64,000 bases of DNA. It comes from an uncultured Planctomycetia bacterium (GTDB lineage: Bacteria; Omnitrophota; Gorgyraeia; 1-14-0-20-64-10). Both the position numbers and the translations under genes were made by a program. The notes under the pieces were generated by a model. It did no database searches, was not told the origin of the DNA, and saw only the letters and a program-made list of their open reading frames with translations. The DNA lies in the NCBI GenBank assembly GCA_964373715.1, contig CAYJVR010000003.1, positions 47,050 through 111,049 on the forward strand. The letters run 5' to 3'. The first letter of the stretch is position 1. Each line of letters opens with the position of its first letter. This document shows, piece after piece, positions 15,465-34,260 of this stretch.

Positions 15465-15586
15465 TGCAAAAGGATAATACCGATTTTCTTGAACTCCGTC
15501 AACCCCAGCCTCCGGATTCCTCGCAATGACAAACAATTATCCTTTTGTTATAATAACCGCTCCGTTTCATTTTCTTTACCAAATCC

Positions 15587-16078: not shown

Positions 16079-16377
16079 TCTCACTCACACATCTGCTGGC
16101 ACTCAGCGGTATCCTTTTCGTCATCGGGCTAATCGGCACGATCACTCGGCGCAACATCATCATGATCCTGCTGAGCCTCGAGATCATCCTCAACGGGGTC
16201 AATATCGCTTTCGTCGCCTTCTCCTACGCTTTAGGCAACCTGACCGGGCAAATCATCGTCTTCTTCGTCATGATCGTCGCAGCGGTGGAGGTCACGGTGG
16301 GCCTAGCAATCGCTGTGGTCCTCGTCCAACAAATGGGCCAAACAAACGCCGATGAGCTGAAGCTGCTCAAATGGTAG
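16075..16377 (+). CDS. nuoK: NADH-quinone oxidoreductase subunit K
   Basis: 100 aa with 3 TM helices and conserved Glu residues. Confidence 0.85.
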   Translation: MISLTHLLALSGILFVIGLIGTITRRNIIMILLSLEIILNGVNIAFVAFSYALGNLTGQIIVFFVMIVAAVEVTVGLAIAVVLVQQMGQTNADELKLLKW

Positions 16378-18290
16378 AGCACCAAGAAATCGCCCGCGCT
16401 GCCGCGGCGCACACGGTCGCTCCGGCCGGCTGGCTCGCATGGACGATTCTCTTCCTGCCTCTGGCCGCATTTTTGGCAATCACTTTCCTTACCCGGAAAT
16501 CCAAACTCCTCAGCACCTCTTTAGCGATCGGCTCTATGGCCATCGGCCTGGCGGCAACCGGCACTCTTCTGCTTCATCTTCTGCGCGCCGGTGAGCACGC
16601 CGCTTATCAATACACCGTGAACTGGATCACCCTGCCAGGCCTGGCGGTCGAGTTCGGCCTGCTGATCAATCCCCTCTCGGTGCTGATGAGCCTTGTGGTC
16701 ACAGGGGTAGGTCTGATGATCTTCCTCTATTCGATTGGCTACATGGCGGACGACGCGGCCTACAGCCGCTACTTCGCCTACCTCTCCCTCTTCGCTTTCT
16801 CAATGCTCGGAATCGTGCTGGCCAATAACTTCGTCACCCTCTTCATGTCCTGGGAACTCGTGGGAGCCAGCTCCTACCTGCTGATCGGCTTCTGGTACGA
16901 CAAACCGGCGGCGGCCGATGCCGGTAAAAAAGCGTTTCTTGTCAACCGAATCGCCGACTTCGGCTTTTTGGCCGGAATCCTGATGCTCTGGAGCATCGCA
17001 GGCAACCAGCTCGACCCGAAAACGCTCAACCTCATTGAGCTGGAACAGAGGATGCCGGGCCTTATCGCGCAGTGGGGCGTGAACCTGTTTTCCCCGCTCT
17101 CGATCGCGGCACTGCTGATCTTCTGCGGAGCGGTCGGCAAGTCGGCCCAGTTTCCTCTGCATGTCTGGCTGCCCGACGCGATGCAGGGCCCGACGCCGGT
17201 TTCCGCCCTCATGCATGCCGCCACGATGGTGGCGGCGGGCGTTTACATGATCTGCCGGGTCTTTTTTCTCTTCGGAGAAGTTCCCGGCGCGCTCGAAATC
17301 ATCGCGGTGATCGGCGGCTTCACCTCGATCTTCGCGGCCAGCATGGCCCTCGTGGAAAACGACATCAAACGGATCCTCGCCTACTCCACCTTGAGCCAGC
17401 TCGGCACCATGGTGATGGCGCTGGGCCTGGGCGGCTACACCGCCGGCATGTACCACCTCTCCACGCACGCCTTCTTTAAAGCGCTTCTCTTTCTCGGCGC
17501 CGGCTGCGTGATTCACGCGATGCACTCGAACAACATCTGGCACATGGGAGGCTTAAAGAAAGCCATGCCGGTCACCACAGCCCTCTTTTTCATCGGCTCG
17601 CTCGCGCTGGCCGGCATCTGGCCCCTGTCCGGGTTCTGGAGCAAAGACGAGATCCTGGCGCTGGCCTTCGGCAAATGCAAGATCCTCTGGACGGTCGGCA
17701 CAGTGACCGCCGGAATGACCGCCTACTACATGGGCCGGGTGCTCTGCGTGGTTTTCCTGGGGGAACAACGGGACCACCACGCCCACCCGCACGAAGTACC
17801 TCCTGTCATGTATATGCCGCTCATCGTGCTGGCAATTTTCTCGGTGGTTGGCGGTTTTATTGGGATCCCCTCCCTGCTCCATCACGCAAAGGGGGTCCAC
17901 GTCGAGTTTAACAAGCTGGTGGCACTGATCTCCAGCGCCGCGGCAGCCGGCGGATTGTTGCTGGCTTTCAAGGTTTACGGCAAACAACCGCAAGAGGACC
18001 CATTCGCGGTGAGGTTCAAGGGGCTCACCCGCCTGCTGACCAGCAAATATTACATAGACGACATCTACGGCTGGCTCAACACCAACATCCAGCAGAGGAC
18101 GGCATTGGTCTCCGCTTGGGTGGAGCGAAACGTCATCATGAGTTTCCTCGTCAACGGCACCGCTAAAATTACCGGCTTGTCCGGCTCCCTCTTAACCAAA
18201 TTTCAGACCGGCAAAGTGCAGGCCTATGCGTTGAGCCTGGTCGCAGGCATCGGGATACTGATCTACGTGGGATGGCGATGCATCCCGTAA
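16371..18290 (+). CDS. nuoL: NADH-quinone oxidoreductase subunit L
   Basis: 639-aa antiporter-like subunit. Confidence 0.9.
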   Translation: MVEHQEIARAAAAHTVAPAGWLAWTILFLPLAAFLAITFLTRKSKLLSTSLAIGSMAIGLAATGTLLLHLLRAGEHAAYQYTVNWITLPGLAVEFGLLINPLSVLMSLVVTGVGLMIFLYSIGYMADDAAYSRYFAYLSLFAFSMLGIVLANNFVTLFMSWELVGASSYLLIGFWYDKPAAADAGKKAFLVNRIADFGFLAGILMLWSIAGNQLDPKTLNLIELEQRMPGLIAQWGVNLFSPLSIAALLIFCGAVGKSAQFPLHVWLPDAMQGPTPVSALMHAATMVAAGVYMICRVFFLFGEVPGALEIIAVIGGFTSIFAASMALVENDIKRILAYSTLSQLGTMVMALGLGGYTAGMYHLSTHAFFKALLFLGAGCVIHAMHSNNIWHMGGLKKAMPVTTALFFIGSLALAGIWPLSGFWSKDEILALAFGKCKILWTVGTVTAGMTAYYMGRVLCVVFLGEQRDHHAHPHEVPPVMYMPLIVLAIFSVVGGFIGIPSLLHHAKGVHVEFNKLVALISSAAAAGGLLLAFKVYGKQPQEDPFAVRFKGLTRLLTSKYYIDDIYGWLNTNIQQRTALVSAWVERNVIMSFLVNGTAKITGLSGSLLTKFQTGKVQAYALSLVAGIGILIYVGWRCIP

Positions 18291-19771
18291 CCTGGGCCCT
18301 CCTCTCCCCGTTTGTTGGGGTTACCCTGCTCTTCGTGATTCCACAGTCCCGCGTGGACTGGGTCCGCCGGATTTCGGCCATCTTCGCCTTCATCCCGTTC
18401 GTAATCGCCCTTTACCTTATCTCCCACTACGACAGAACCATCGCCGGCTACCAGTGGGTCCATAAAATCCCCTGGATCAGCTCACTCGGTGTCTCCTATC
18501 AGGTCGGCGTGGACGGAATCAGCGTCGTCCTCCTGCTCCTGCACTCCATCTGCGGATTGGCGGGGGTCTTGATCTCCTACCGGATCACGGAGCGTGTCAA
18601 AGAGTATTACATCTTCTACCTCATGCTGATCGGCGGCGTCACCGGCGTTTTCGTCTCGCTCGACCTCTTCTTTTTCTACATGTTCTACGAGATGGCGGTC
18701 ATCCCGATGTTCCCGCTGATCGGCATATGGGGGTCCGGCGAAAAGTATTACGCCACGATGAAGCTGACCCTCTACCTCACCGCCGGAGCGGTGCTCGCAT
18801 TGGTCGGGCTGATGATGGTCTACATGATCAGCGGCATTTGGACCTTCGACCTGATCTTTCTGGAAAGGTACCTGGCGCAGAACCCGATCCCGGGCCACAT
18901 CCAGATCTTCCTGTTCCCGTTCCTGCTGATCGGCTTCGGTGTGATCGCGCCGATGTGGCCATTCCACTCCTGGTCGCCGATCGGCCACGCCTCGGCACCG
19001 GCCGCCGTCTCCATGCTCCATGCCGGTGTGCTGATGAAGCTCGGCTCCTACGCGATCCTCAGGGTCGCGTTCCAGATCCTCCCGCAGGGGGCCTACACCT
19101 GGATGCCCTGGGTGGCGGTGCTCTGCACGATGAACATCCTGTACGGCGGTTTCGTAGCGATGGCGCAAAAGGACATCAAGTACACGATCGGCTACTCCTC
19201 TTCGAGCCACATGGGCTACGTCCTCTTGGGCCTGGCCTGCCTGAACCCGGTCGCCTTAAACGGGGCCGTTTTCCTCATGTTCGCGCACGGCATCATGACC
19301 GCGCTGGCCTTCGCCAGCGTCGGCCATATCTACGACCAGACCCACACCCGCATCACCTCCGACTGGGGCGGCCTCTCAAAAAGGATCCCCTTCATCGCAA
19401 CGATGTTCGTGCTGGCTGCGCTGGCCTCCAGCGGTCTGCCGGGCTTCGGCAATTTCGTCGGTGAATTGCTCATCTTCTTCGGCTCGTGGGACGTTTACCG
19501 CTGGCCTGCCCTCGCGGCAATCTTCGGCATCATCACCACAGCCTTCTACATGCTACGCGCCGTAAGGACCGGTTTCTTCGGCCCACTTAACCCAAAGTGG
19601 GAGCATCTCGAAGACGCCAATACACTTTTCGAGAAAGCGCCGTACCTCCTACTCGTGGGGGCGTTGGTCGCGGTCGGCTGCTGGCCGAGGCTCCTGACCG
19701 AGATCGTCTCCGTCTCAACCGGCAATATCTTGAGCCACCTCTCTCCCTTGAAAACACTGGCGGGACTCTAA
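18272..19771 (+). CDS. nuoM: NADH-quinone oxidoreductase subunit M
   Basis: 499-aa antiporter-like subunit. Confidence 0.9.
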   Translation: MAMHPVTWALLSPFVGVTLLFVIPQSRVDWVRRISAIFAFIPFVIALYLISHYDRTIAGYQWVHKIPWISSLGVSYQVGVDGISVVLLLLHSICGLAGVLISYRITERVKEYYIFYLMLIGGVTGVFVSLDLFFFYMFYEMAVIPMFPLIGIWGSGEKYYATMKLTLYLTAGAVLALVGLMMVYMISGIWTFDLIFLERYLAQNPIPGHIQIFLFPFLLIGFGVIAPMWPFHSWSPIGHASAPAAVSMLHAGVLMKLGSYAILRVAFQILPQGAYTWMPWVAVLCTMNILYGGFVAMAQKDIKYTIGYSSSSHMGYVLLGLACLNPVALNGAVFLMFAHGIMTALAFASVGHIYDQTHTRITSDWGGLSKRIPFIATMFVLAALASSGLPGFGNFVGELLIFFGSWDVYRWPALAAIFGIITTAFYMLRAVRTGFFGPLNPKWEHLEDANTLFEKAPYLLLVGALVAVGCWPRLLTEIVSVSTGNILSHLSPLKTLAGL

Positions 19772-19774
19772 CCG

Positions 19775-21202
19775 GTGGACACACTCCTTTACCTTCTCCC
19801 TGAAGTCTGGGTGAGCCTCCTGGCTCTCTTCGTACTTTTTCTCGACCTCTCCTGGGAAAAGGAACGGCATCCCCAAATCGGCCTCATGGCGGCGATGGGC
19901 ATGATCCCGGTACTGCCGATCCTGTTCATGCAGAGACAGCTCGGCACGGTGGATCTCCTGTACGGGATGTACCGGATTGACCAGGTCGCGCTCATCTTCA
20001 AGGGGATCTTCATCTTTGCCGCGATCTTCGTGATCCTGATGACCCGGGAGCAATCCCGGACGATGGAACGGGGCCACGGGGAATTTTACTTGCTGATCCT
20101 CGCGGCGACGCTCGGCATGATGTTCGCCGCTTCAGCCGCCGACTTCCTGATGCTGTTCGTCTCGCTGGAGCTGATCACGGTCAGCTTCTACGTGATGACC
20201 TCCTACTTGAAGACGAACCTCCGTTCGCTGGAGGCCGGCGTGAAATATCTGATCCTGGGCTCGATCTCCTCCGCCTGCCTGCTTTACGGGATCGCCTTCG
20301 TCTACGGCACCACCGGCTCGGTCAATTTCTCCGAAATCCGGCATTTCCTCAAGGGAACCCCTTATTCCGCCAGCTGTCTCTTCGGCCTTTTCCTTATCCT
20401 GGGCGGCATCCTCTTTAAAGCGACGGCGGTCCCGTTCCAGCTCTGGGCACCGGATGTTTACGAGGGGGCCCCGACGCCGGTGACAGCGTTCCTTTCGGTA
20501 GGGTCCAAATCGGCCGGGTTCCTCGTGGCTCTGCGGGTTTTCCACGAGCTGTTCATGCCGGCCAGCAGCGACTGGGTGCCGCTCATGGTCTGGCTGTCGG
20601 GCCTCACGATCCTTTACGGAAACCTGGGGGCGATCTCCCAAAAGAACATCAAGCGGCTGTTCGGCTACTCCTCGATCGGGCACGCCGGCTACTTATTGAT
20701 GGGGCTGGCAACCCCCTCGAGTCTCGGCACGACCGCGGTGATCTTTTATCTCACCGGCTACCTATTCACGAACATGGCTGCCTTCCTCGTCATCATCACC
20801 TTCTCCAGCCACACCAACTCGGATGAAATTAAGGATTACGCGGGCTTGGCCAGACGCTCGCCGTTCCTGGCGATGGTGATGTTCGTCTCCCTGCTCTCGC
20901 TGGCGGGCGTGCCGCCGATGGCCGGCTTTATCGGCAAATTCATGCTGCTGTTAAGCGCCCTCTCGGAAGGATTTTTAGTGCTGGCGGTGATCGGAGCGGC
21001 AGCGGTGGTGATCTCGCTCTACTACTATCTCATGATCGTCCGGACGATCTACGCCGACACCCCGTCCGACGCCTCCCCCATTCCGGTTTCCTGGCCGGCA
21101 AAGATCGCGATGATCACCTGCCTGGCCGGCATCTTCGTGATCGGCGTCTGGCAGGAGCCGTTTTTGAACGCCTCCTTCGCCGCCGTCAAGAAACTCTTCT
21201 GA
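19775..21202 (+). CDS. nuoN: NADH-quinone oxidoreductase subunit N
   Basis: 475-aa antiporter-like subunit. Confidence 0.9.
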   Translation: MDTLLYLLPEVWVSLLALFVLFLDLSWEKERHPQIGLMAAMGMIPVLPILFMQRQLGTVDLLYGMYRIDQVALIFKGIFIFAAIFVILMTREQSRTMERGHGEFYLLILAATLGMMFAASAADFLMLFVSLELITVSFYVMTSYLKTNLRSLEAGVKYLILGSISSACLLYGIAFVYGTTGSVNFSEIRHFLKGTPYSASCLFGLFLILGGILFKATAVPFQLWAPDVYEGAPTPVTAFLSVGSKSAGFLVALRVFHELFMPASSDWVPLMVWLSGLTILYGNLGAISQKNIKRLFGYSSIGHAGYLLMGLATPSSLGTTAVIFYLTGYLFTNMAAFLVIITFSSHTNSDEIKDYAGLARRSPFLAMVMFVSLLSLAGVPPMAGFIGKFMLLLSALSEGFLVLAVIGAAAVVISLYYYLMIVRTIYADTPSDASPIPVSWPAKIAMITCLAGIFVIGVWQEPFLNASFAAVKKLF

Positions 21203-21979: not shown

Positions 21980-22006
21980 GTCCTTCGACAAGCTCAGGGC
22001 GAACGG
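21980..22006. repeat. 27-bp dispersed repeat, family R3, copy A (MTase/nuoI convergent intergenic region)
   Basis: GTCCTTCGACAAGCTCAGGGCGAACGG, identical at 26 of 27 positions to 23985-24011. Confidence 0.65.
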
Positions 22007-22124: not shown

Positions 22125-22787
22125 TCAGTGCCCTTTGGACGTTAGCTCCCGCAGGCGCTTCCAACCCTCTTCGGTAATCTGCTTCCGATCCTTATTATAC
22201 ACCTGCTTCCAGTCTCCCGTCATCTCTTCTTTATGGAACGAGCATTTGTGGGGGAACTTGAGGTCGCATTTCTTGGTGGCCTTGCGCAGTTTCGGATCCA
22301 TCAGCTCATGGATGTCCAGCTTCATCTCGTCGCGGGTGTAGGCCGCCACGTCAAGGATATTCGTGTCCATCCGGATCGCGTCCTCCGGGCAGACCTCCAC
22401 GCAGTAGCCGCAATAGACGCAGACCCCCAGGTCAATATCGAACTTGACAGGGTACTTCTCCACGTTTGGGTCCGGGTGCTCGCCGGCCACGATCGTGATG
22501 CATTTGGCCGGGCAGACCGTCTCGCAGAGCATACAGCCCACGCACCGGGGGGTCCCCTCTTCGCGGACAGTCAGCCGGTGCCGGCTCCGGAAGCGGGGGG
22601 CCAACGGCCTCGGGTTCTCCGGGTATTGGAACGTCACGCCGGCCTGCACATCCTTCATCAGGCCGAACCGGTGGGCCGTGTGGATCCCCAGGTTCCGGAA
22701 GAAGTGAACGGAGGTGATATAGACCCCCCGGAAGATCTCCGGCAGGTACAGGTTTTCCCAGAATGTCAGTTCCCTCTTACGGATCAT
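22125..22787 (-). CDS. nuoI: NADH-quinone oxidoreductase subunit I with a ~60-aa Lys-rich C-terminal extension
   Basis: Two CxxCxxCxxxCP ferredoxin motifs. 220 aa versus the typical ~160-180 aa. Confidence 0.85.
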   Translation of the reverse strand: MIRKRELTFWENLYLPEIFRGVYITSVHFFRNLGIHTAHRFGLMKDVQAGVTFQYPENPRPLAPRFRSRHRLTVREEGTPRCVGCMLCETVCPAKCITIVAGEHPDPNVEKYPVKFDIDLGVCVYCGYCVEVCPEDAIRMDTNILDVAAYTRDEMKLDIHELMDPKLRKATKKCDLKFPHKCSFHKEEMTGDWKQVYNKDRKQITEEGWKRLRELTSKGH

Positions 22788-22790
22788 GCG

Positions 22791-23930
22791 CTACCAGCCT
22801 TTCGGGAAGAAGACCGCCATCACCAAAGCCGTCACCGCCACGTTCGCCAGCGCGATCGGGAAAAGGACCTTCCAGCCGAGCTTCATCAGCTGGTCGTAGC
22901 GAAACCTCGGCAAGGTCCAGCGGATCGTCATGAAGAGCCAGCAGAAAAAGATCACCTTCAGCGAGAAGGACCCGACGCCCATCAGGGCGTAGACCAGGTT
23001 ATTCACCGGCACCGACCCCCCCCAGGGAAAGTAAAACCCGCTCGGAGAAAGGAACGGCACCTGCCACCCGCCAAGGAATAGGGTGGTAAGCAGGCAGGAG
23101 ATCAGCACCGTCTCGAGGAAATCCACCATGAAGAAGATGCCGAACTTCATGCCGCTGTACTCCACAAAATAGCCGACGATCTCCGACTCCCCTTCCGGGA
23201 GGTCGAAGGGAATCCTTTTGGTCTCGGCGAGCGCCGCCGCCATGAAGACGAAGAAGGCGACCGGCTGGAGGAATATCCCCCACATCGGCAGAAAGCCGAA
23301 CAGATACCTGCCCTGCGCCCTCACCATCTCCTGCAGGTCGAGCGTGCCGTAGAGCATCACGAGGCCGATGATCGAGATCCCCAGCGCGATCTCATAGGAG
23401 ATCATCTGGGCCGAGGCCCGCAGGGAGCCGAGGATCGCGTAGTTATTTTTTGAGGAGAAGCCGGCCAGGATCACGCCGTAGACCCCGAGCGACATCATCG
23501 CGAAAACGTACAAAAGGGCGATGTCAATCTTGGCGATCTGCAGGTCGATCACCTGCCCGCTTAAGACCAGCCGGTCGCCGAACGGAATGCCGGCGAACGC
23601 CACCAGCGCGAAAAACATCGAGAGGAACGGGGCCAGCGTGTGGAGGAACCGGTCGGCGTTGGCCGGAATGAAATCCTCCTTGGTAAACATCTTCACAGCA
23701 TCGGCGACCGGGTGGAACAGCCCGAGTACATTGAGCGGCCTCAGCAACCAGTTGATCGGCGCCGCCCATTTCCAGGGTAGACGGATATAGGCCCGGTTTG
23801 CGCCAATCCGGTCCTGCATCAGGGCCGACTGCTTGCGCTCGACCCAGGCATGCAGACCCCCCAGTTGGAGCACGAAACCGAGAATAAAGGCCCCCGCCAG
23901 ACCGGCCTTGACCGCAATCACGGAGATCAT
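22791..23930 (-). CDS. nuoH: NADH-quinone oxidoreductase subunit H
   Basis: 379-aa polytopic ND1-like protein. Confidence 0.9.
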   Translation of the reverse strand: MISVIAVKAGLAGAFILGFVLQLGGLHAWVERKQSALMQDRIGANRAYIRLPWKWAAPINWLLRPLNVLGLFHPVADAVKMFTKEDFIPANADRFLHTLAPFLSMFFALVAFAGIPFGDRLVLSGQVIDLQIAKIDIALLYVFAMMSLGVYGVILAGFSSKNNYAILGSLRASAQMISYEIALGISIIGLVMLYGTLDLQEMVRAQGRYLFGFLPMWGIFLQPVAFFVFMAAALAETKRIPFDLPEGESEIVGYFVEYSGMKFGIFFMVDFLETVLISCLLTTLFLGGWQVPFLSPSGFYFPWGGSVPVNNLVYALMGVGSFSLKVIFFCWLFMTIRWTLPRFRYDQLMKLGWKVLFPIALANVAVTALVMAVFFPKGW

Positions 23931-23952
23931 CGGGCGGCCACCTCGATCTCAC

Positions 23953-25623
23953 TCATGGTGAGCCTGTCGAACCATGAGCAGCGCGTCCTTCGACAAGCTC
24001 AGGACGAACGGTGGTTAATTGCGCACCCTGCAGGCCGATCTTGTCGTGCGAAAGCCCTTCGAAAGCCGGATTCTCGGCCGCCAGCTTCGCAAAGATCTCT
24101 TCAGGCGACGCAAAGGGGGCCGGGATCTCCAACAGATGGAACAGCTCCAGAAGTGTTTTCCAGTCGGGGCGGGCCTCCCCCAGAGGAGCGAAGGCCGGCA
24201 GTATCCGCTGTACCCTGCCGTGGCAGTTGACGAACGTACCGTTGTTTTCCGCGAAGACGGCGCTCGGCAAAACCCAGTGGGCATGCTTCGCGGTGCCGTT
24301 CTCGTTCGGCCCCTGGAACACGAACACCTCCAGCTTGTCGGCCAGCGTTTTCACCTTCTCTTCGCCGATCAGATTGACCAGGTCATGGCCGAAGACCCAG
24401 AGGGTCTTGATCTCGCCGGCCAAAGCCTTCTCGATGATCGCGCCGGAAGCGCTGGCCCCGTTGCCCGGCTTGGCCGGCGCGGAAGCCCCCGGGAAACCGA
24501 CCAGCGTGGCCCCGAGCGTGTTCGGATTCTTGTCCCCCTTGATGAGGAAGTCGTCGGAAGAGCCGGGCTGGCGCGGCACCTGGATGTCGCAGTGGCCGAT
24601 CCCCAGAGATTCCTTGAACAGCTTGCGGACCAGATAAAGCTCCTCGTTGGTCTGCTGGGCCGACGGAAGCACACCGACCTGCCCCTGCTTCCCTTCCGAT
24701 TTCGCGCGGCTGAGCGCATCGGCGAGCCCGCTCAGCGCCTGGTCCCAGGTAGTTTCACGCCCCTTCTGCCGGACCTTCAGTATCCGGTCCTTATCAATGA
24801 ACTTGTAACCGTAGCGGCCCTCGTCGCACATCCACCACTGGTTCACCTCTGAGTTGTACCGGGGCTTGACCCGCATCACGCGGGCGCCGTCGGCCAGGTG
24901 CGGCCGGTCGGTGACGTAATGAAGATCAATGTTGCAACCCTGCGAACAACCGGTGCAGACCGACGGGGCCGTTGAAAGATACCAGACCCTCGCTTTGAAC
25001 CGGAAATCTCGGTCGGTCAGGGCTCCAACCGGGCAGATGTCTACCACGTTGCCGGAGTAATTGTTTTCGAGCACCTTGCCCGGATAGAGACCAACTTCCG
25101 CCTTGTCTCCCCGGTTAAAAATCCCCAGTTCGCCGGTCTTGCTCACTTCATCGGTGAACCGGGTGCATCGGGAGCAGAGAACACACCTCTCGGCGTCCAG
25201 CATCACGGTGGGGCCAAGAGGCAGAGCCTTCGCCTTCTTGACCTTCTGCTCCTGGAACCGTGAATCGTACAGCCCGTACTGCATGTAGAAATTCTGCAGG
25301 TCGCACTCCCCCGACTGGTCGCAGACCGGGCAGTCGAGAGGATGGTTGATCAGCAGGAACTCAAGCACCGACTGCTGGCCCTCGGTCACTTTCTGGGAGT
25401 TGGTGCGGACTACCATCCCCTCGGCGACCGGTGTGTTGCAGGCAATCTGGAGTTTCGGGGCTTTCTCGATCTCCACGAGGCAGATCCGGCAGTTGCCGGC
25501 AATCGAGAGGCCCGGGTGATAGCAGTAGCGGGGCACGAAGATGCCGAGTTTCTCCGCCGCCTGGATCACCGTCGTCCCGGGCGGGACCTCGACCTCTTTT
25601 CCGTCAATCGTCAGTTTAGGCAT
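23953..25623 (-). CDS. nuoG: NADH-quinone oxidoreductase subunit G (short form)
   Basis: The N-terminal 2Fe-2S and 4Fe-4S Cys motifs are present. The last ~17 codons are encoded by a dispersed 27-mer repeat. Confidence 0.85.
   Translation of the reverse strand: MPKLTIDGKEVEVPPGTTVIQAAEKLGIFVPRYCYHPGLSIAGNCRICLVEIEKAPKLQIACNTPVAEGMVVRTNSQKVTEGQQSVLEFLLINHPLDCPVCDQSGECDLQNFYMQYGLYDSRFQEQKVKKAKALPLGPTVMLDAERCVLCSRCTRFTDEVSKTGELGIFNRGDKAEVGLYPGKVLENNYSGNVVDICPVGALTDRDFRFKARVWYLSTAPSVCTGCSQGCNIDLHYVTDRPHLADGARVMRVKPRYNSEVNQWWMCDEGRYGYKFIDKDRILKVRQKGRETTWDQALSGLADALSRAKSEGKQGQVGVLPSAQQTNEELYLVRKLFKESLGIGHCDIQVPRQPGSSDDFLIKGDKNPNTLGATLVGFPGASAPAKPGNGASASGAIIEKALAGEIKTLWVFGHDLVNLIGEEKVKTLADKLEVFVFQGPNENGTAKHAHWVLPSAVFAENNGTFVNCHGRVQRILPAFAPLGEARPDWKTLLELFHLLEIPAPFASPEEIFAKLAAENPAFEGLSHDKIGLQGAQLTTVRPELVEGRAAHGSTGSP
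23985..24011. repeat. R3 repeat copy B (encodes the C-terminal tail of nuoG)
   Basis: GTCCTTCGACAAGCTCAGGACGAACGG. Read in the nuoG frame it encodes ...VRPELVEGRA... Confidence 0.65.
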
Positions 25624-27489
25624 TTAGGCGTGGACCTCTGTCCTTGCCAGATCGCACTTCCCGGTGGCGACGTGGTGCTCGAACTCGCTCCGGAACTTGT
25701 TGATGTAGCTCTGCACCGGCCAGGCCGCCGCGTCGGCGAAAACGCAGATCGTTTTCCCCTCCATGTTGGAGGCGATCGAGAGCATGTTGTTGATGTCGGC
25801 GGGCCGTCCTTGCGCGTTCTTCACCCGGTCCATGATCTTGAGAATCCAGCCGGTCCCCTCCCGGCACGGGGAGCATTGGCCGCACGACTCGTCGGCGAAG
25901 AAGTGGGCGGCGCTCTGCAAAGCGTCCACCATGCAGGTGGTCTCATCCATCACGATTACGCCGGCCGAACCGGCCATCGTGCCGGCCGCCATCAGCGAAT
26001 CGAAGTCCATGCCGACCTCTATCTCATCAGCCTTCAGGATCTTCGCGGAGATGCCTCCCGGCACCACCGCCTTGAGCTTCTTGCCCTCCCGGATGCCGCC
26101 CGCGTATGTCGCGGAGTAGATCAGTTCTTTTAATGAGACGCCGGCGGAGGCCTCGTAAAGGCCGGGCCGGACCACGTGGCCGGAAACAGAAAAAAGCCGC
26201 GTGCCCCCCTGCTTCGGGGTGCCCAGCTTGGCGAACCACTCGGGGCCGTTGCGGATGATCGGCGGCACAGCGGCGAGGGTCTCCACGTTGTTCACGATCG
26301 TCGGACACTTGAAGAGGCCGGAGATCGCCGGGAACGGCGGCTTCAGTTTCGGGAAACCCTTGCTCCCTTCGAGCGAGGAAAGCAAAGCCGTCTCCTCCCC
26401 GCAGATGTAGGCGCCGGCCCCCTTGTGCACCACGAGCTCCAGGTCAAAACCGGATCCCTGGATGTTCTTGCCCAGCCACCCTTTGGCGTACGCCTCAGCG
26501 ACCGCCTTGCCAAAGCGCTCGATCGAGCGGTCGTATTCGCCCCGGATGTAAACATAAGATTTATGGGAACCGATCGCGTAGGCGGCGATGATGATCCCTT
26601 CGATTAAAGAGTGAGGGTCCCTCTCGAGGATATACCGGTCCTTGAAGGTGCCCGGCTCCCCCTCGTCGGCGTTGACCACGAGGAACTTCGGCTTCGGGGA
26701 ATTCTTCGGGATGAACGACCACTTCTTGCCGGTCGGAAAGCCGGCGCCGCCGAGGCCGCGCAGATTCGCCTTGCTGACCGTGTCGATCACCTGCTCCGGC
26801 TTCATCGTGCTCAACACCTGCTTCGCCGCCTGATAGCCCTTGTCGGCCGTGTAGGCGTCGAACCAGGCGCCGGCCACGCTCTTGAAACGGCTCGAGATCA
26901 CCGGCCCCTCTGTGGCAATGTGAAGCGCCGGTTCCGGAACGTTCAGACTCCCGCCCGGGCCGCTCCGGGTCTGCTGGATCACCGTCTCGAAGATGGTTTT
27001 ATCGGTCAGGCAGCCGACGTATTGCTTGTTCACCTGAGCGCAGGGGGCCGCCTCGCACGCGCAGAGACACTCGACCGTGGAAAGGGTCACCTGCCCGTCC
27101 GGCGTGGTCTCTCCGGGAGATATCCCGTACCGCTCCTTCATCTGGGCGATCACGTTCTTCGACCCTTTAAGGAGACACGGCAGGGAGACGCAAACCTGGA
27201 CGTTGTATTTGCCGACTGGCTTCGTGTGATAAAGGGTGTAGAAGGAAACCACCTCCCGGACATGGACAATGCTGGTCTCCACCTTGTCAGCCACCCATTG
27301 TTCCGCTTCGGGGGTAAGATAACCGATCGAATCCTGCGCGAGCCACAACAGAGGCAGGGTCGTGGCTCGCTTCTCCTCGTACTTCTCGAGGATCTCGTTC
27401 GCCTGGGCTTCCAGTTTTTGGAAGTCGAATTTTCCGTGCCCCATGCCCCCCGCCCCTTGTCCCTTATCTCCTGCTCCCTGTCCCATCAT
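25624..27489 (-). CDS. nuoEF: Fused NADH-quinone oxidoreductase subunits E and F (24-kDa 2Fe-2S domain plus 51-kDa FMN/NADH/4Fe-4S domain)
   Basis: The N-terminal ~170 aa have the NuoE Cys motifs (CVSLPC...CLCACEAAPC). The remainder is NuoF, with GLGGAGFPTGKKWSF, a GEPGTFKDR segment and the 4Fe-4S CGQCSPCREG motif. The N-terminal leader is Gly-rich. Confidence 0.85.
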   Translation of the reverse strand: MMGQGAGDKGQGAGGMGHGKFDFQKLEAQANEILEKYEEKRATTLPLLWLAQDSIGYLTPEAEQWVADKVETSIVHVREVVSFYTLYHTKPVGKYNVQVCVSLPCLLKGSKNVIAQMKERYGISPGETTPDGQVTLSTVECLCACEAAPCAQVNKQYVGCLTDKTIFETVIQQTRSGPGGSLNVPEPALHIATEGPVISSRFKSVAGAWFDAYTADKGYQAAKQVLSTMKPEQVIDTVSKANLRGLGGAGFPTGKKWSFIPKNSPKPKFLVVNADEGEPGTFKDRYILERDPHSLIEGIIIAAYAIGSHKSYVYIRGEYDRSIERFGKAVAEAYAKGWLGKNIQGSGFDLELVVHKGAGAYICGEETALLSSLEGSKGFPKLKPPFPAISGLFKCPTIVNNVETLAAVPPIIRNGPEWFAKLGTPKQGGTRLFSVSGHVVRPGLYEASAGVSLKELIYSATYAGGIREGKKLKAVVPGGISAKILKADEIEVGMDFDSLMAAGTMAGSAGVIVMDETTCMVDALQSAAHFFADESCGQCSPCREGTGWILKIMDRVKNAQGRPADINNMLSIASNMEGKTICVFADAAAWPVQSYINKFRSEFEHHVATGKCDLARTEVHA

Positions 27490-28817
27490 CGATCCAGCTC
27501 CCCGCCGATCATGTTGACCGACCCAAAGGTCGGGACCACGTCGGCCATCTGGTCGCCGTTCAACAAGAGAGGCAGCGCCCCCATGATAGTAAAGCAGGGG
27601 GGCCTCACCCGGACCCGGTAGGGGTTCTCGGTGCCATCGCTCACGATGTAGAAACCGAGTTCCCCGTTGGCCCCTTCGACCGGCACGTACGCCTCACCCT
27701 TAGGCGGGCGTATCCCGTGGCCGACCATCACCAGCTTGAAGTGGTTCATCAGCCCTTCGATGTTGCCGTAGGTGTCCTCTTTTGCCGGCAGGAAAACCCT
27801 CTTCTCCGGCGCGGCGATATCTTTCCAGACCGTTTTGTCGGTCCCCTGCAAAGTGGGGTCCACCTCCGCCATCTTGCCAGCGATCTCCCGGATCTTGCCC
27901 ATCTTGGCCTCGTCGATCATTTCGGCAGCCGGGATCGGCTCGAGCGCCTCCGGCTTGACCGGCAGGCCGGTCTCCGGGTCCACCGCAACGTGCCCGCCGG
28001 GGATATCCTTCAGGCATTGTTCAATAATCCGGATGGACTGCTCCATCTCCTCCATCCGGCAGTAGTAGCGGTCCAGGTTGTCGCCGTGCGAACCGAGCGG
28101 AACATCAAACTGAAGCCGGTCATAAATCGAGTAGGCGCAAGCCTTGCGCACGTCGTAATTGACGCCGGTACTCCGCAGGAACGGCCCGGTGATTCCGTAG
28201 GAGATGGCATCCTTCTGGGAGATTTTGCCGGTCCCCTTCATTCGGTCCACGAAGATCCGGTTGCGGGTCAAAAGCTTGTCGCACTCCGCAATAACGTCGC
28301 GCACATCCTTCAACGCTTTTCTCGTCTTCTCCTCGAAACCGGGCGGCAGGTCGGCCTTCACGCCGCCGACGCGGCAGTAGGAGACGGTCAGCCTCGCGCC
28401 GGTCACCATCTCCACCAACTCCCAGAGGTACTCGCGCGCCTTGATCATATAGAGGAAGACGGTGAAGGCTCCGAGCTCCATCGCGGAGGCGCCGACACAA
28501 GTGAGGTGATCGGTGATGCGCGATATCTCCGAAACGATCACCCGGATGTATTCGCAGCGCTCCGGCACCTTCAGGCCGAGCAGTTTCTCGACCGCCATCG
28601 CGTAGCCGACGTTGTTGATGAGCGGCGAGACGTAGTTCAAGCGGTCGGTGTACGGGAAGACGCCGTTGTAGGTGACCGTCTCCGACATCTTCTCGAATCC
28701 CCGGTGCAGGTAACCGATCTCGACGTCCGTGGAGCGGATCGTCTCCCCTTCCAGGCCAACGATGATCCGGATGATCCCGTGCATCGCCGGATGGGCAGGG
28801 CCGACATTCAGCAGCAT
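27486..28817 (-). CDS. nuoD: NADH-quinone oxidoreductase subunit D (49 kDa) with a ~40-aa internal insertion
   Basis: Start placed at ATG 28817 (MLLNVGPAHPAMHG...). The 31 upstream codons of the ORF (to the GTG at 28910) lie inside a copy of the 48-bp dispersed repeat and are probably non-coding. Confidence 0.8.
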   Translation of the reverse strand: MLLNVGPAHPAMHGIIRIIVGLEGETIRSTDVEIGYLHRGFEKMSETVTYNGVFPYTDRLNYVSPLINNVGYAMAVEKLLGLKVPERCEYIRVIVSEISRITDHLTCVGASAMELGAFTVFLYMIKAREYLWELVEMVTGARLTVSYCRVGGVKADLPPGFEEKTRKALKDVRDVIAECDKLLTRNRIFVDRMKGTGKISQKDAISYGITGPFLRSTGVNYDVRKACAYSIYDRLQFDVPLGSHGDNLDRYYCRMEEMEQSIRIIEQCLKDIPGGHVAVDPETGLPVKPEALEPIPAAEMIDEAKMGKIREIAGKMAEVDPTLQGTDKTVWKDIAAPEKRVFLPAKEDTYGNIEGLMNHFKLVMVGHGIRPPKGEAYVPVEGANGELGFYIVSDGTENPYRVRVRPPCFTIMGALPLLLNGDQMADVVPTFGSVNMIGGELDR

Positions 28818-28880
28818 CTCCTTCGTCTGCAAAGAAGACGCGTCATCGCGAGACCCCGAAGGGGTCGTGGCAATCTCGTT

Positions 28881-28928
28881 GGTGCTTTCCGTATGAGATT
28901 GCTTCGTCACTTCGTTCCTCGCAATGAC
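28881..28928 (-). repeat. R1 repeat copy 3 (inverted orientation) at the nuoD 5' end
   Basis: Reverse complement reads GTCATTGCGAGGAACGAAGTGACGAAGCAATCTCATACGGAAAGCACC. Partial 11-mer copies also occur at 15499-15516 and 38729-38742. Confidence 0.65.
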
Positions 28929-28938
28929 GCGTACCGCA

Positions 28939-29541
28939 TCAATTCACCGGGCCAATTAAGGGCTGGCGCTTACTGACAGGATAATCCTTGCGCAATGGGT
29001 GCCCCTTGAATTCCGAATACAGCAAAAGCCGCTTCAGGTTCGGGTGCCCCTTGAATTTGATCCCGTACATATCCCACACCTCCCGCTCGAACCAGTTGGC
29101 GGATCCCCACAAATGGGCCACCGAATCCACCTGGGGATTCGACTCCTCGACCGGGACTTTTAAGCGGAGCCTATGGCCAAGAGGCAGAGAAAAAAAGTGA
29201 TAGACCAGCCCGAACCGGGCTTTCGCCGCCGTACCCGGCCAGGGAGATCCGTCCTCGATGTGGCCCGGCGGTTTGGCCGCAACACCTGCGTTGAAATGGG
29301 CCGCCTTGGCCGGCGGGGTCGCGGCAAACGTGAGGTAATCCACCGCCGTCAGATCGATCAGAAAATTCATCTGGAACGAGGAATTCTCTTTAAGGAAATT
29401 CGCCACGTCGAGAACATACTCCGGGCGGATCGTGGTGGTGGCGTCACCCCTGTAGGTATGGGTCGAGATGACCGCCGCGGCAAAACGCCGGGAGATCAGA
29501 TCGAAGAGGGCGGGGTCAGACTGAGAAAGATTTTCCGGCAT
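28939..29541 (-). CDS. nuoC: NADH-quinone oxidoreductase subunit C (30 kDa) with a ~35-aa Ala/Pro-rich insertion
   Basis: The NuoC core (LIDLTAVDY...FGLVYHFFS...) is interrupted by TFAATPPAKAAHFNAGVAAKPPGH... Confidence 0.8.
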   Translation of the reverse strand: MPENLSQSDPALFDLISRRFAAAVISTHTYRGDATTTIRPEYVLDVANFLKENSSFQMNFLIDLTAVDYLTFAATPPAKAAHFNAGVAAKPPGHIEDGSPWPGTAAKARFGLVYHFFSLPLGHRLRLKVPVEESNPQVDSVAHLWGSANWFEREVWDMYGIKFKGHPNLKRLLLYSEFKGHPLRKDYPVSKRQPLIGPVN

Positions 29542-30025
29542 GATACATCTGCGCTTTCGGGAACTCTTTTCCGGAATGCTGAAGCTGGATCTTTTCCTGA
29601 AGCTTCATCAGGCCGTCCAACACATACTCAGGCCTGGGGGGACAGCCGGGAATGTAAATGTCCACAGGGATAATCGTGTCGATCCCCATCACGGTGGCGT
29701 AATTGTCGTAGAAACCGCCGGTGCAGGTGCAGACGCCGAACGCGACGACCCACTTCGGTTCGGTCATCTGGTCGTAGATCTTCTTCAAAATCGGCGCCAT
29801 CTTGTGGCTGATCGTGCCGACCACGAAGAGGACGTCGGCCTGCCGGGGGGAAAAACGCGGGAGACCCGCCCCGAACCGGTCCACGTCGTAGTGGGAGCAG
29901 GCGGTGGCCATGTACTCCATGCCGCAGCAAGCGGTGACAAAAGGGTACTGGAAAATCGAGTACTTGCGGGCCCACCCGATCGCCGATTCCAGCTTGCTGG
30001 TAACGAAGTTTTCTCCGCCGAACAT
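29516..30025 (-). CDS. nuoB: NADH-quinone oxidoreductase subunit B (PSST)
   Basis: CCxxE...C...CP 4Fe-4S (N2) motif. SD GAGGT upstream. Confidence 0.9.
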   Translation of the reverse strand: MFGGENFVTSKLESAIGWARKYSIFQYPFVTACCGMEYMATACSHYDVDRFGAGLPRFSPRQADVLFVVGTISHKMAPILKKIYDQMTEPKWVVAFGVCTCTGGFYDNYATVMGIDTIIPVDIYIPGCPPRPEYVLDGLMKLQEKIQLQHSGKEFPKAQMYHAGKSFSV

Positions 30026-30042
30026 ATTTACCTTACCTCGCC

Positions 30043-30090
30043 GTCATTGCGAGGAGCATAGCGACGCGGCAATCTCATCGCAGAATCACC
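30043..30090 (+). repeat. 48-bp dispersed repeat, family R1, copy 1, between the nuoB start and nuoA
   Basis: GTCATTGCGAGGAGCATAGCGACGCGGCAATCTCATCGCAGAATCACC. The partner motif GCCACGCTCCACTCGCAATGACAC at 30115-30138 carries the inverted 11-mer. Confidence 0.7.
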
Positions 30091-30147
30091 CAAGATAACT
30101 TTGCATGAGATGGCGCCACGCTCCACTCGCAATGACACATAATGCGT

Positions 30148-30516
30148 TCACTGCCATTCGAGAGCACCTTTGCGCCAAGCATACACAAAGCCGATCAACA
30201 GGACCCCCAGGAAGAGGGCCATCGTCGTGAACCCGGGCAGGCCCAGATGCCTGTAAACGACCGCCCAGGGGAACAGGAAGACCAGCTCAACGTCAAAGAG
30301 AATAAAGAGCATCGCGATCAGGTAAAAGCGGATCGTCATCTTGCCGGTCGGCAGGCTGAACGGCCTCTCGCCGCATTCGAACGGTTCGCTCTTGGCGGCT
30401 GAAGGCTTCTTCGGGCCGAGGATCGAGGAGAGCAGGATGAAAACCCCTGCGATCCCGCCGGCCAGAATAAATGTGACTAGGATACCGAGATATTCGCTCA
30501 TGGATAAGACGCTCAT
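30148..30516 (-). CDS. nuoA: NADH-quinone oxidoreductase subunit A
   Basis: 3-TM ND3-like protein. ATG at 30516 with a GGGAG SD. The ORF-track start at 30528 is a TTG. Confidence 0.8.
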   Translation of the reverse strand: MSVLSMSEYLGILVTFILAGGIAGVFILLSSILGPKKPSAAKSEPFECGERPFSLPTGKMTIRFYLIAMLFILFDVELVFLFPWAVVYRHLGLPGFTTMALFLGVLLIGFVYAWRKGALEWQ

Positions 30517-30556
30517 TATAACAATCAAGCTCCCGAATTTCTACTTATCCATCTCT

Positions 30557-30603
30557 GTCATTGCGAGAAGCGTAGCGACGAAGCAATCTCATGCAAAATC
30601 AAC
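30557..30603 (+). repeat. R1 repeat copy 2, in the nuoA/thyA divergent region
   Basis: GTCATTGCGAGAAGCGTAGCGACGAAGCAATCTCATGCAAAATCAAC, with the partner GCCACGCTCTGCTCGCAATGACAC at 30691-30714. Confidence 0.7.
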
Positions 30604-30740
30604 TTACGGTTAGCCGGTTTGCGAGTTTGCGAGTTAACCGGTGAACCGACTAACAGGCCAACTGGCCAACGCTTTGTTCCAGGACGAAATGCCACGCTCT
30701 GCTCGCAATGACACGGCAAGACCCGTATAATGATGAACCT

Positions 30741-31535
30741 ATGAAAGCCTACCTGGATCTTATACGCCACATCATTGACAACGGCGCCAAAAAAACCGAC
30801 CGGACCGGCACCGGAACCTTATCCGTTTTCGGCTACCAGATGCGGTTTGACCTCACTCAGGGCTTCCCTCTGGTCACCACGAAGAAGATGCACACCAAAT
30901 CGGTGATCCATGAACTGCTCTGGTTCCTCCGCGGCGACACGAACGTGAAGTACCTTCACGACAACGGCGTCACGATCTGGGACGAGTGGGCCGACGCTCA
31001 AGGAGAGCTTGGGCCGGTCTACGGACATCAGTGGCGCAGTTGGCCGATACCCGAGGGCGGAACGATCGACCAGACCAGCCAAGTAGTCGAGATGATCAAA
31101 ACAAAGCCGGATTCCCGGCGGCTGATCGTCTGCGCCTGGAACGCGGCCGACATTGACAAGATGAAGCTGCCCCCCTGCCATTGCCTGTTTCAATTCTACG
31201 TGGCGGACGGAAAGCTCTCCTGCCAGCTTTACCAGCGCAGCGCCGACGTTTTCCTCGGCGTGCCGTTCAATATCGCCTCCTACGCTCTGCTCACGATGAT
31301 GGTCGCGCAGGTAACCGGCCTGAAGGCCGGCGAATTCATTCACACATTCGGCGACGCCCATCTTTACCTCAATCACCTGGAACAAGCGAAGCTTCAGCTC
31401 TCAAGGGAGCCGTTCCCGCTCCCAACAATGAAGCTGAATCCCGCAGTCAAATCAATCTTCAACTTTAAATACGAGGACTTCACTTTGGAGAATTACCAGT
31501 CCCACCCAAGCATTAAGGCCCCGATCGCCGTCTAA
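30741..31535 (+). CDS. thyA: Thymidylate synthase
   Basis: Start at [11 protein letters not shown]. Active-site PCH motif and the DRTGTGT region. Confidence 0.9.
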
Positions 31536-32757: not shown

Positions 32758-34230
32758 ATGGCTAAGACACTGTTTGAAAAGGTGTGGGACCCGCACGTCG
32801 CGGTGCAGAACCCCGACGGCACGGTCCTGCTTTACATTGACCGCCACCTGGTGCATGAGGTCACCTCGCCGCAGGCCTTCGAAGGGCTGCGCCTGACCCA
32901 CCGGAAAGTGCGCCGGCCTGAGCTCACGTTCGCCACGATGGACCACAACGTGCCGACCTCCGCCACAGAGCGAGGCGGATCCGCCTCAGGCGGAAACGAC
33001 CGGATGAATATCGCCGACCCAATCTCGAAGGCGCAGATCGACGCCCTTTCAGAAAACTGCCGAGAGTTCGGTATTACCCTCTATGACTTGAAATCGGATA
33101 AACAGGGGATCGTCCACATCATCGGGCCGGAACTGGGGATCACCTTGCCCGGCTCAACGATCGTCTGCGGAGACTCCCACACCTCGACGCACGGGGCGTT
33201 CGGCACGCTGGCGTTCGGGATCGGCACCTCCGAGGTGGAACACGTGCTGGCCACCCAAACCCTGCCCCAGAAACGGCCGAAGACCTTTAAAGTGGAATAT
33301 ACAGGCACCCTGAAAGCCGGCTCAACTCCCAAGGACATGGTCCTGAAGATGATCGGGTTGATCGGCACCGCCGGCGGAACCGGCTACGTGATCGAGTACG
33401 CGGGCGAGGCTGTGCGGAAACTCTCGATGGAACAGCGGATGACGATCTGCAACATGACGATTGAGGCGGGAGCGCGGGCCGGCATGATCGGGCCGGATGA
33501 GACCACGTTCCAGTACGTCGCCTCCGGCAACCGGCCGTTCGCGCCGAAAGGGGCGAATCTCGAAAAGTCCCTGGCCTATTGGAAGACTCTGCCCTCCGAC
33601 CCGGAGGCGAAATTCGACCGGACGCTCTCTATCAACGCCTCGGAGATCGCACCGCAGGTCACCTGGGGGACAAACCCCGGCATGGTGATGGATGTGACCG
33701 GGCGGATCCCGGAACCGGACAAGGTGCCAGGCTACTCCCGGAAGGATGTCGAGCAGGCGCTCGCCTACATGGGGCTTACCCCCGGCACCCTGATCACCGA
33801 GATCAAGCTGGACCTGGTCTTCATCGGCAGCTGCACCAACGGCCGGATCGAGGATCTGCGGAGCGCGGCGAAGATTTTCAAAGGGAGAAAGGTGGCCAAA
33901 GGGATCAAAGTGCTGGTGGTCCCCGGCTCCGAGCAGGTGCGCAAGCAAGCGGAGAGCGAAGGGCTCGACAAGATCTACAGGGAGGCCGGCTGTGAGTGGC
34001 GGTTCGCCGGCTGTTCGATGTGCCTCGGGATGAACCCGGACCAGCTGAAGTCCGGCGAACGGTCGGCTTCGACGTCAAACCGGAACTTCGAGGGGCGGCA
34101 AGGCAAAGGGGGGCGCACCCACCTGGTCTCGCCGGAGATGGCGGCCGCCGCCGCGATCGAGGGGCATTTCGTGGACATCCGCACGTGGAATGAAAAACGA
34201 AAGGAAACCCTTACCCTTCCCTCTCCCTGA
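32758..34230 (+). CDS. leuC: 3-isopropylmalate dehydratase large subunit
   Basis: Aconitase-family Cys ligands and the [11 protein letters not shown] start. The stop codon sits in the loop of a GC-rich palindromic repeat. Confidence 0.9.
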
Positions 34231-34252
34231 GGGAGAGGGTTAGGGTGAGGGG
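34208..34252. repeat. GC-rich palindromic repeat, family R2, copy a (the leuC stop is in its loop)
   Basis: CCCTTACCCTTCCCTCTCCC-tga-GGGAGAGGGTTAGGGTGAGGGG, a near-perfect ~20-bp-arm hairpin. Confidence 0.7.
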
Positions 34253-34260
34253 AAACCAAG

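Follow-up and report, generated by a model that had tools for sequence, protein, structure and literature searches.

Three related palindromic repeats lie between the first genes of a nuo (complex I) operon in the 64-kb stretch of DNA analysed here (the window), which derives from an Omnitrophota-like lineage. The question raised by this locus is whether such repeats belong to the control of complex I or are mobile DNA that came to rest there; a first-pass annotation of the window had left both options standing. Taken together, the structural, comparative and published data make it very probable that the repeats, here termed E1, E2 and E3, are inverted dimers of a hairpin DNA repeat of the kind described as CGTC-tagged repetitive extragenic palindrome (REP), NTS or Ssn-related motif (SRM), that the partner of this repeat is the nuclease Ssn, and that the three copies were inserted around nuoA-D. 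The repeat is widespread and looks selfish, and a role in the control of complex I is not supported. The kind of element is known; the flavour and the Omnitrophota-like host are new, and the published degenerate motif does not capture it.

Read as a whole, the window contains three palindromic elements that are all complete and all built as inverted dimers from a single unit. From its YGTC tag, this unit runs through AT-TGC into an interior that varies and holds a small hairpin with a GNA loop, and then through GCA-AT to a CTC tail. The 11-mer GTCATTGCGAG/CTCGCAATGAC has six exact matches in the window and ten at no more than one mismatch, where 1.32 are expected and none of 100 shuffles reached ten. 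The first-pass annotation had recognised three near-identical long copies, and these (30043-30078, 30557-30592 and, on the opposite strand, 28893-28928) are indeed 85-89% alike. The inverted partner that it placed after the plus-oriented copies, GCCACGCTC..CTCGCAATGACAC, is present at 30115-30138 and 30691-30714. The nuoD copy has a partner as well, GTCATCGCGAG at 28842, which carries one mismatch and had been missed. The long-range stem proposed there is predicted to form, as a long hairpin, but the elements are complete inverted dimers rather than half-copies with 11-mer partners. When a profile of the six arms is scanned across the 64 kb, it returns only those six arms, with E values of 1e-11 to 6e-6, and one marginal relic. 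All six arms open with C/T-GTCAT (CGTC in three, TGTC in three), end in the tail CTC and use the stem ATTGC/GCAAT.

E1 (28838-28932) is an inverted dimer within the 121-nt nuoC-nuoD spacer, and its palindrome reaches ACGCGTCAT...ATGACGCGT. Its left arm (28842-28879, plus strand) reads GTCATCGCGAG-ACCCCGAAGGGGTC-GTGGCAATCTCGT, with one mismatch in the 11-mer (profile E 6.5e-9), and its right arm (28893-28928, minus strand) reads GTCATTGCGAGGAACGAAGTGACGAAGCAATCTCAT (E 3.8e-10). E2 (30043-30136) is a heterodimer of a long and a short arm in the 122-nt nuoA-nuoB spacer: the long arm, GTCATTGCGAGGAGCATAGCGACGCGGCAATCTCAT, occupies 30043-30078 on the plus strand (E 1.7e-10), and the short arm, GTCATTGCGAGTGGAGCGTGGCGCCATCTCAT, occupies 30105-30136 on the minus strand (E 2.7e-8). 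E3 (30557-30712), in the spacer that separates the divergent thyA and nuoA genes, is an inverted dimer that has expanded and partly degenerated. It shares the long-arm/short-arm layout of E2, around a structured centre of 87 nt, with the long arm GTCATTGCGAGAAGCGTAGCGACGAAGCAATCTCAT at 30557-30592 on the plus strand (E 1.2e-11) and a degenerate short arm, GTCATTGCGAGCAGAGCGTGGCATTTCGTCC, at 30680-30712 on the minus strand (E 6.3e-6). Folding of the intergenic regions, proposed earlier as a check, gives long hairpins on either strand, with RNA energies between -44 and -65 kcal/mol and z of -4 to -7: -47/-51 kcal/mol (z -6.9/-6.4) for E1, -50.6/-44 kcal/mol (z -5.1/-6.9) for E2 and -64.9 kcal/mol (z -4.0) for E3.

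The marginal relic, TGTCATTGCGAGGAATCC at 15513-15531 on the minus strand (E 0.05), may be a solo relic or a short unit. It lies in the divergent spacer between a transketolase gene, whose true start is near 15461, and nuoJ, which starts at 15587; the first-pass annotation had pointed to an 11-mer relic beside transketolase, with coordinates slightly off. The relic it proposed near a large secreted-protein gene fared worse: that site, 38722, is at noise level in the arm-profile scan, as are those at 42483 and 4973, and all three were rejected as relics. The search for the 11-mer, also proposed there and run on the window, yields a real excess over shuffled sequence, but only the six arms and the marginal relic hold up. 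Rfam covariance models gave no match at gathering scores across the window, and only chance-level hits in the repeat region at E values up to 10. An exact-sequence search of the literature returned only unrelated primers for the 11-mer and no match for 17-22-mers. An exact look-up of the NuoB protein likewise found no entry.

Beyond the pairing of arm with arm, covariation speaks for each arm being a selected hairpin in its own right. A scan for GTCAT-NNN-GAGCGAAGCGA-N(3-4)-ATC, in which the stem bases were left free, collected 139 distinct copies. The stem triplets are complementary in 127 of these, whereas shuffling of the 3' halves leaves 54 complementary on average and never more than 68; among copies with a triplet other than TGC, complementarity holds for 48 of 57, against 13 expected. 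At least nine stems are in use (TGC/GCA, TCT/AGA, CCT/AGG, TCC/GGA, CCC/GGG, ACT/AGT, GTT/AAC, CGC/GCG and GCT/AGC), and ATTAC/GTAAT and ATTTC/GAAAT are further variants of the basal stem. Because arm-to-arm pairing within a dimer needs no such complementarity, this covariation supports a hairpin at the level of the arm.

The position of the elements relative to the nuo genes differs from what was first described. The first-pass annotation assigned them to 5' ends and 5' untranslated regions, which is misleading: E1 begins 6 nt past the nuoC stop, E2 begins 8-11 nt past the nuoA stop, and E3 lies upstream of the predicted nuoA promoter. All four genes are on the minus strand. nuoC (28939-29541; PF00329) ends just ahead of the E1 hairpin. 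nuoA (30148-30501; PF00507, 3.8e-37) has E3 upstream and E2 downstream. The Shine-Dalgarno sequence of nuoB (29516-30025; PF01058), GAGGTAAGG, is outside the E2 hairpin, and that of nuoD (27486-28817; PF00346) is likewise outside a hairpin. The promoter-like nuoA site, TAGAAA-17-TGnTATAAT, is a consensus match only, at 30515-30543 on the minus strand between E3 and nuoA; its layout of TATAAT, 13 nt and ATG recurs in two relatives, L121 and L297. As E3 is upstream of this predicted promoter, it is probably not part of the nuoA leader.

At nuoD, the element also affects the reading of the gene itself. The open reading frame (ORF) 27486-28910 begins at a GTG (28910) inside E1 and so adds 31 codons over the likely start at 28817, an extension that the first-pass annotation, probably rightly, called spurious. 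E1 occupies the place of the first NuoD residues of relatives (MELQTKE-MLLN), and the window retains ...LQTKE in frame. The likely NuoD start is ATG 28817; perhaps TTG near 28832, or GTG 28910 inside E1, is used.

Comparison of the same junctions in relatives, another of the checks proposed earlier, indicates that the elements were gained. The three closest metagenome nuo loci are compact, and none of the junctions that can be read on their contigs carries the elements. L296 (NuoC 75% identical) has a nuoC-nuoD gap of 7 nt; L297 (NuoC 67%) has a thyA-nuoA gap of 57 nt and gaps of 0 nt at both nuoA-nuoB and nuoC-nuoD; and L298 (NuoC 65%) has a nuoA-nuoB gap of 3 nt, with nuoC and nuoD overlapping. 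Seven more distant nuoABCD loci that were inspected closely (L122-L125, L130, L137 and L169) are compact too, leave about 0-30 nt at the nuoA-nuoB junction and have no such unit at nuoC-nuoD. No complete element of the window flavour was found in 80 nuo loci from GTDB genomes, totalling 941 kb. Because the closest readable nuo junctions are compact, E1-E3 are read from these comparisons as lineage-specific insertions and not as conserved parts of the operon.

The closest named relative, L121, is an Omnitrophota metagenome-assembled genome (MAG) with the same thyA-nuoA synteny (NuoC 64% and NuoD 82% identical). Its junctions carry units of another flavour: a solo GTCATTTCGAGCGAAGCGAGAAATCTC at nuoA-nuoB and a GTCATCCTCGCGAAAGCGAGGATC dimer at nuoC-nuoD. 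A 1.7-kb insert (10008-11708) parts its nuoD from nuoEF and contains a cluster of GTCATCCTCGCGAAAGCGAGGAT units, a 310-aa ORF without a Pfam match and a 98-aa GIY-YIG gene (11315-11608; PF01541) flanked by its own GTCATCCTCGC units.

Outside nuo operons, the repeat is abundant. A scan of viral contigs for GTCATTGCGAG-N55-85-CTCGCAATGAC found complete elements with the same 11-nt ends in at least 120 stretches, comprising at least 165 elements, mostly 78-102 nt long. The unit is present in more than 200 viral contigs, Alphaproteobacteria, cyanobacteria, Flavobacterium and Helicobacter prophages. At least 40 places on one 1.76-Mb replicon of Novosphingobium resinovorum carry such elements, and further hosts are N. 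aromaticivorans, Methylosinus trichosporium OB3b, Methylobacterium, the cyanobacterium Aulosira laxa and prophages of Helicobacter canis. Across 833 structurally defined arms, GTC follows C in 380 and T in 354, and more rarely G (68) or A (31); CTC tails number 232 and CCA tails 219. The interior of the family opens with GAG, usually with a small hairpin whose loop is GAA, GTA or ATA, and inverted pairs have their tags outward in 153 cases and inward in 11. Viral copies sit in phage capsid, portal and tail gene clusters, while others sit in unrelated bacterial operons; clustering of the neighbouring genes at 215 viral loci gave phage structural genes only, with no transposase cluster beside the elements. 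At gene junctions of phage structural clusters, or of clusters resembling gene transfer agents, both filled and empty sites are seen, and the element starts 0-11 nt past the stop codon. This placement close to stop codons recurs in other genomes.

The nearest published counterparts include Neisseria repeats. Chenal et al. (Nat Commun 2025; PMC11893778) describe NTS (CGTCATTCCCGCGMAVGCGGGAATCYRG), an oriented form of dRS3, and SRMs, which flank ssn genes; the NTS-ssnA-NTS arrangement resembles an insertion sequence (IS). The Ssn proteins are single-domain GIY-YIG nucleases (cd10448) that bind a hairpin in single-stranded DNA, cleave just one strand at a point upstream of the hairpin, and are inactive on double-stranded DNA and on RNA. 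Binding and cutting were demonstrated for Neisseria and three other homologues, and Wolbachia is named (PMC11893778). The window arms resemble NTS/SRM in their oriented C/T-GTC-A-T head, their AT-starting hairpin and their ATC-pyrimidine tail. The SRM head, HGTCWY, is present in all six of them, and C or T precedes GTC in 734 of the 833 family arms. A further SRM trait, an inverted repeat of 20-50 nt that folds into a hairpin, is supported by the covariation of the basal stem. Both are also intergenic, clustered around genes and found as units flanking small single-domain GIY-YIG genes, for the window flavour at six loci of a Flavobacterium clade. The window flavour departs from NTS/SRM in: its 5-bp basal stem; its longer interior with a nested small hairpin; its CTC tail; its occurrence mostly as inverted dimers; and its Omnitrophota-like host.

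A second description of the same kind of repeat is that of the CGTC-tagged REPs (Di Nocera et al. 2013; PMC3733652), which have a CGTC/TGTC tag, an AT stem start and a CCA tail, occur mostly as inverted dimers, and include Neisseria dRS3 and Rickettsia RPE-4/6. The likeness extends to the unpaired CGTC/TGTC tag, the A-T then T-A start of the stem, a 3-nt tail (CCA there, CTC in the window), the predominance of inverted dimers, often heterodimers with structured spacers, and a location after ORFs. Consistent with this, all three window elements are dimers, with E1 and E2 6-11 nt past stop codons and E3 in a divergent spacer. Judged by the available text, the window flavour fits the CGTC superfamily and none of its four described families. 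Equating it with CGTC-2 of N. aromaticivorans was considered and rejected: the ssn gene there is flanked by CGTCGCCCCGTGCTTGACACGGGGC, a unit that differs from the GTCATTGCGAG elements of the plasmid on which it lies.

Other small repeats are less close. The REP/BIME and REPIN-RAYT systems of E. coli and Pseudomonas are also short extragenic palindromes, often in inverted doublets, whose transcribed copies can affect mRNA, and in these systems too the enzyme is encoded by a single-copy gene lying between its own repeats, and the site is recognised as single-stranded DNA. They differ in tag (GTAG, as compared to CGTC here) and in enzyme (an HUH tyrosine transposase, as compared to a GIY-YIG nuclease). 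Correia/NEMIS elements, which are miniature inverted-repeat transposable elements (MITEs), are similarly small, non-coding, inverted-repeat elements between genes and are co-transcribed with them, but have defined terminal inverted repeats with a TA duplication, as well as promoter sequences and sites for IHF. E1-E3 show no visible duplication of the target.

The enzyme expected from these comparisons is found beside the repeat in other genomes, and the window flavour is linked to an Ssn clade. In six loci of a Flavobacterium ssn clade (L107, L394 and L399-L402), the flanking units are GTCATTGCGAG or the co-varying GTCATTACGAG...GTAATC, on both sides of the gene in all but L400, where they are downstream only. 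The L107 gene has GTCATTGCGAG dimers on both sides and was the only other homologue, besides that of L121, among the fetched loci; its protein is identical to one from Flavobacterium beibuense. The proteins of this clade and of L121 match Pfam GIY-YIG, and those of L121 and L107 are 48% and 45% identical, respectively, to the SsnA homologue of N. gonorrhoeae, which is flanked by NTS in its record. When the L121 and L107 proteins were searched against viral contigs, ten loci were recovered, and in all ten, hairpin units with C/T-GTCA(T/C) heads lie about 10-130 nt away; the background after shuffling is about 0.045 arms of this form per kb. The units are usually on both sides of the gene, with stems specific to each locus. 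A separate Ssn-like GIY-YIG gene was seen on the Planktothrix agardhii plasmid p1 (L398, 18847-19131), bordered by TGTCATTCTGAGTGAAACGAAGAATCTC dimers and by short head repeats in tandem, and standing between a gene for an MmeI-type restriction-modification protein and the DISARM gene drmA.

In general form, the unit has four parts: an unpaired C/T-GTC head; an AT-starting basal stem (here ATTGC/GCAAT); a variable interior that includes a small hairpin with a GNA-type loop; and a short CTC or CCA tail. By analogy with its published relatives, the unit exposed on single-stranded DNA would be the recognition site of its cognate Ssn, which would cut just upstream on one strand. The ssn genes, flanked by their own units in an IS-like layout, would provide the enzyme, and units could then multiply in trans into intergenic spacers, typically landing directly past stop codons. 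In the source genome, three dimers would have entered the spacers of the first nuo genes, with the cognate ssn gene presumably elsewhere in that genome. E1 and E2, if co-transcribed, would form stable RNA hairpins 6-11 nt past the nuoC and nuoA stops, presumably as a by-product only. These hairpins would leave the ribosome-binding sites of nuoD and nuoB free, and might change the decay of the mRNA or the coupling of translation, in the manner of E. coli REPs.

Several observations weigh against reading E1-E3 as mobile Ssn-partnered repeats. The published SRM string, HGTCWYN(0-2)YYVSBRHN(0-5)WNVSBRGN(0-2)RNCYNB, is matched by none of the window arms. It matches the Neisseria NTS, used as a positive control, and the L121 nuoC-nuoD dimer, and also misses the units that flank ssn in L107, L386, L396 and L398. 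The 5-bp basal stem and 11-25-nt interior of the window flavour are unlike the dimensions of CGTC-1 to CGTC-4, whose stems are 8-9 bp and loops 4-5 nt (PMC3733652). By tblastn, the 64 kb contains no ssn homologue, nor, with E. coli RayT as query, a RAYT homologue. Folded singly as DNA, the arms have nearest-neighbour energies of -1 to -8.7 kcal/mol (z about 0), no better than those of shuffles; since these energies are unremarkable, arm-level pairing is argued from covariation rather than from energy. Finally, every recognisable copy in the window adjoins nuo genes (nuoA, nuoB and nuoD, with the relic at nuoJ), a placement that simple random scattering does not explain. Enrichment at nuo genes is nevertheless treated as unproven, because the window has only about 20 spacers of at least 35 nt, because E1-E3 all lie within 1.9 kb and may not be independent insertion events, and because another palindromic family occupies unrelated spacers.

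The nuo-only placement would be accommodated if hairpins of selfish origin had been kept in the operon as useful RNA, acting as segment stabilisers, as barriers to RNase III or exonucleases, or as translation uncouplers that set subunit ratios. This proposal does not exclude the mobile origin and is compatible with it, but is judged unlikely. In its favour are the very stable predicted hairpins (z -5 to -7), their start just past stop codons with the downstream Shine-Dalgarno sites free, the precedent of E. coli REPs, which make transcripts more stable and can hold up ribosomes close to stop codons (PMC12306157), a second palindromic family at nuoG-nuoH and after nuoI, and the presence of such units at nuoC-nuoD in L121 and in L186/L199. 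Set against these are the empty junctions of the three closest relatives, the order of long and short arm relative to the mRNA, which is opposite in E1 and E2, a strand asymmetry in folding that is not consistent across elements, the confinement of the elements to 1.9 kb, and the other palindromic repeats in others of the window's few spacers. The stronger form of the idea, a cis-regulatory or RNA-structural module specific to complex I and common to nuoA, nuoB and nuoD, is close to refuted. The clustering of three copies at nuo genes, from which the first-pass annotation derived it, is outweighed: the element is missing from the orthologous junctions of L296, L297 and L298 and from the distant nuoABCD loci inspected closely, occurs in either orientation relative to mRNA, and turns up in hundreds of contexts with no relation to nuo, among them phage capsid, portal and tail clusters and unrelated bacterial operons. 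In addition, no Rfam family matches it, E3 is upstream of the predicted nuoA promoter, and RNA is not a substrate of the published partner enzyme, which works on single-stranded DNA (PMC11893778).

Among mobile alternatives, REPINs, which are REP doublets copied by RAYT, an IS200-like HUH tyrosine transposase, have the same dimer architecture, and Bertels and Rainey attribute a unit of CGTC type, the Neisseria repeat ATTCCCGCGCAGGCGGGAATC, to a Group 2 RAYT. This alternative is very unlikely here. The units bear CGTC or TGTC in place of the GTAG tag; RAYT homologues in L167, L244 and N. gonorrhoeae are directly flanked by other, GTAG-type repeats; Di Nocera et al. report no transposase associated with CGTC repeats (PMC3733652); and it is GIY-YIG genes that these units flank. 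RAYT was rejected as the partner enzyme on its absence from the window, the GTAG-type repeats at its loci and its near absence from viral contigs (three loci), where the repeat is abundant. Classical MITEs, deletion derivatives of a DDE-type IS with terminal inverted repeats and target-site duplications, would account for the terminal inverted repeats of 11-36 bp, the length of about 90-160 bp and the intergenic position, yet are barely credible as an explanation: each arm is a co-varying hairpin with an oriented head and tail, no transposase cluster lies beside the elements, and no target-site duplication is visible at E1-E3 or in filled and empty pairs, the latter being too diverged for exact borders. 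The MITE-like label of the first-pass annotation remains apt to the extent that the elements are short, non-coding, palindromic, multi-copy and absent from relatives' junctions; the classical form with terminal repeats and duplications is not supported, and 5' untranslated regions are not their target.

With E1-E3 read as Ssn-partnered inverted dimers, a broader proposal can be entertained, although it is unlikely: that the ATTGCGAG flavour is a distinct, widespread SRM subfamily with its own Flavobacterium-type Ssn clade, and that nuo junctions, nuoC-nuoD foremost, are preferred sites of landing or retention. Such a subfamily may be characterised by a 5-bp basal stem, a nested GNA-loop mini-hairpin and inverted dimers, and may span at least five phyla and many phage genomes. 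If true, the preference for nuo junctions would hint that the spread of Ssn/SRM pairs is tied to single-stranded DNA exposed in long, heavily transcribed operons. The occurrence of Ssn genes with locus-specific flanking hairpins in viral contigs, Flavobacterium and cyanobacteria implies that the diversity of Ssn/SRM pairs, which are of interest as tools for single-stranded DNA, is probably under-counted.

For annotation, recognising such repeats averts spurious calls of regulatory elements. Hairpin repeats also yield false N-terminal extensions and can mask true starts, as at nuoD and in two further genes of the window. The ORF of the transketolase N-terminal subunit (14577-15536) has a false extension, MFVIARNPEAG..., that runs through the repeat end, as compared to its true start near 15461. 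The thyA ORF (30708-31535) opens at an ATG inside the CAATGAC of a repeat end, and its true start is 30741 on the plus strand.

Several further repeats were observed in the course of these comparisons. In two MAGs, an insert of 1.4-1.5 kb at nuoC-nuoD (L186, 8438-9867; L199, 5044-6582) contains one ORF without assigned function and adjoins GTCATTCTGAACGAAGTGAAGAATC-type units. A Nitrospinales heterodimer of GTCATTCTGAGGAACAACGTGACGAAGAATC and GTCATGCTGAGCTTGTCGAAGCATC occurs at L132 7215-7284, L145 7134-7204 and L329 752-821, and in L132 and L145 lies about 320 nt upstream of nuoA. A separate GTAG/RAYT system is represented by a RAYT-like gene in L244 (about 1220-1830), flanked by GGCGCAGGCTTCAGCCTGTGG-type dimers, and by L167 (150-1000), with GTAGGTCGAAAC-type REPs.

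Within the window, nuo genes form two clusters: nuoABCD-EF-GHI on the minus strand (22125-30501) and nuoJKLMN on the plus strand (15587-21202). NuoE and NuoF are fused in one 621-aa ORF (25624-27489) with 2Fe-2S thioredoxin-like and 51-kDa domains. A palindromic intergenic family, CCCTCTCCCT(G/C)AGGGAGAGGGTTAGGGTGAGGGG, occupies three spacers unrelated to nuo (34209-34253, 52584-52628 and 57943-57987), and another, GTCCTTCGACAAGCTCAGGACGAACGG, occupies the nuoG-nuoH spacer and that after nuoI. At these two nuo spacers, the repeat GTCCTTCGACAAGCTCAGG(A/G)CGAACGG, with the inverted partner GGTGAGCCTGTCGAACC, has copies at 23957-24011 and 21980-22006 that are 96% identical; the copy at nuoG-nuoH probably stretches the nuoG ORF beyond its true stop near 24017, and the other follows nuoI.

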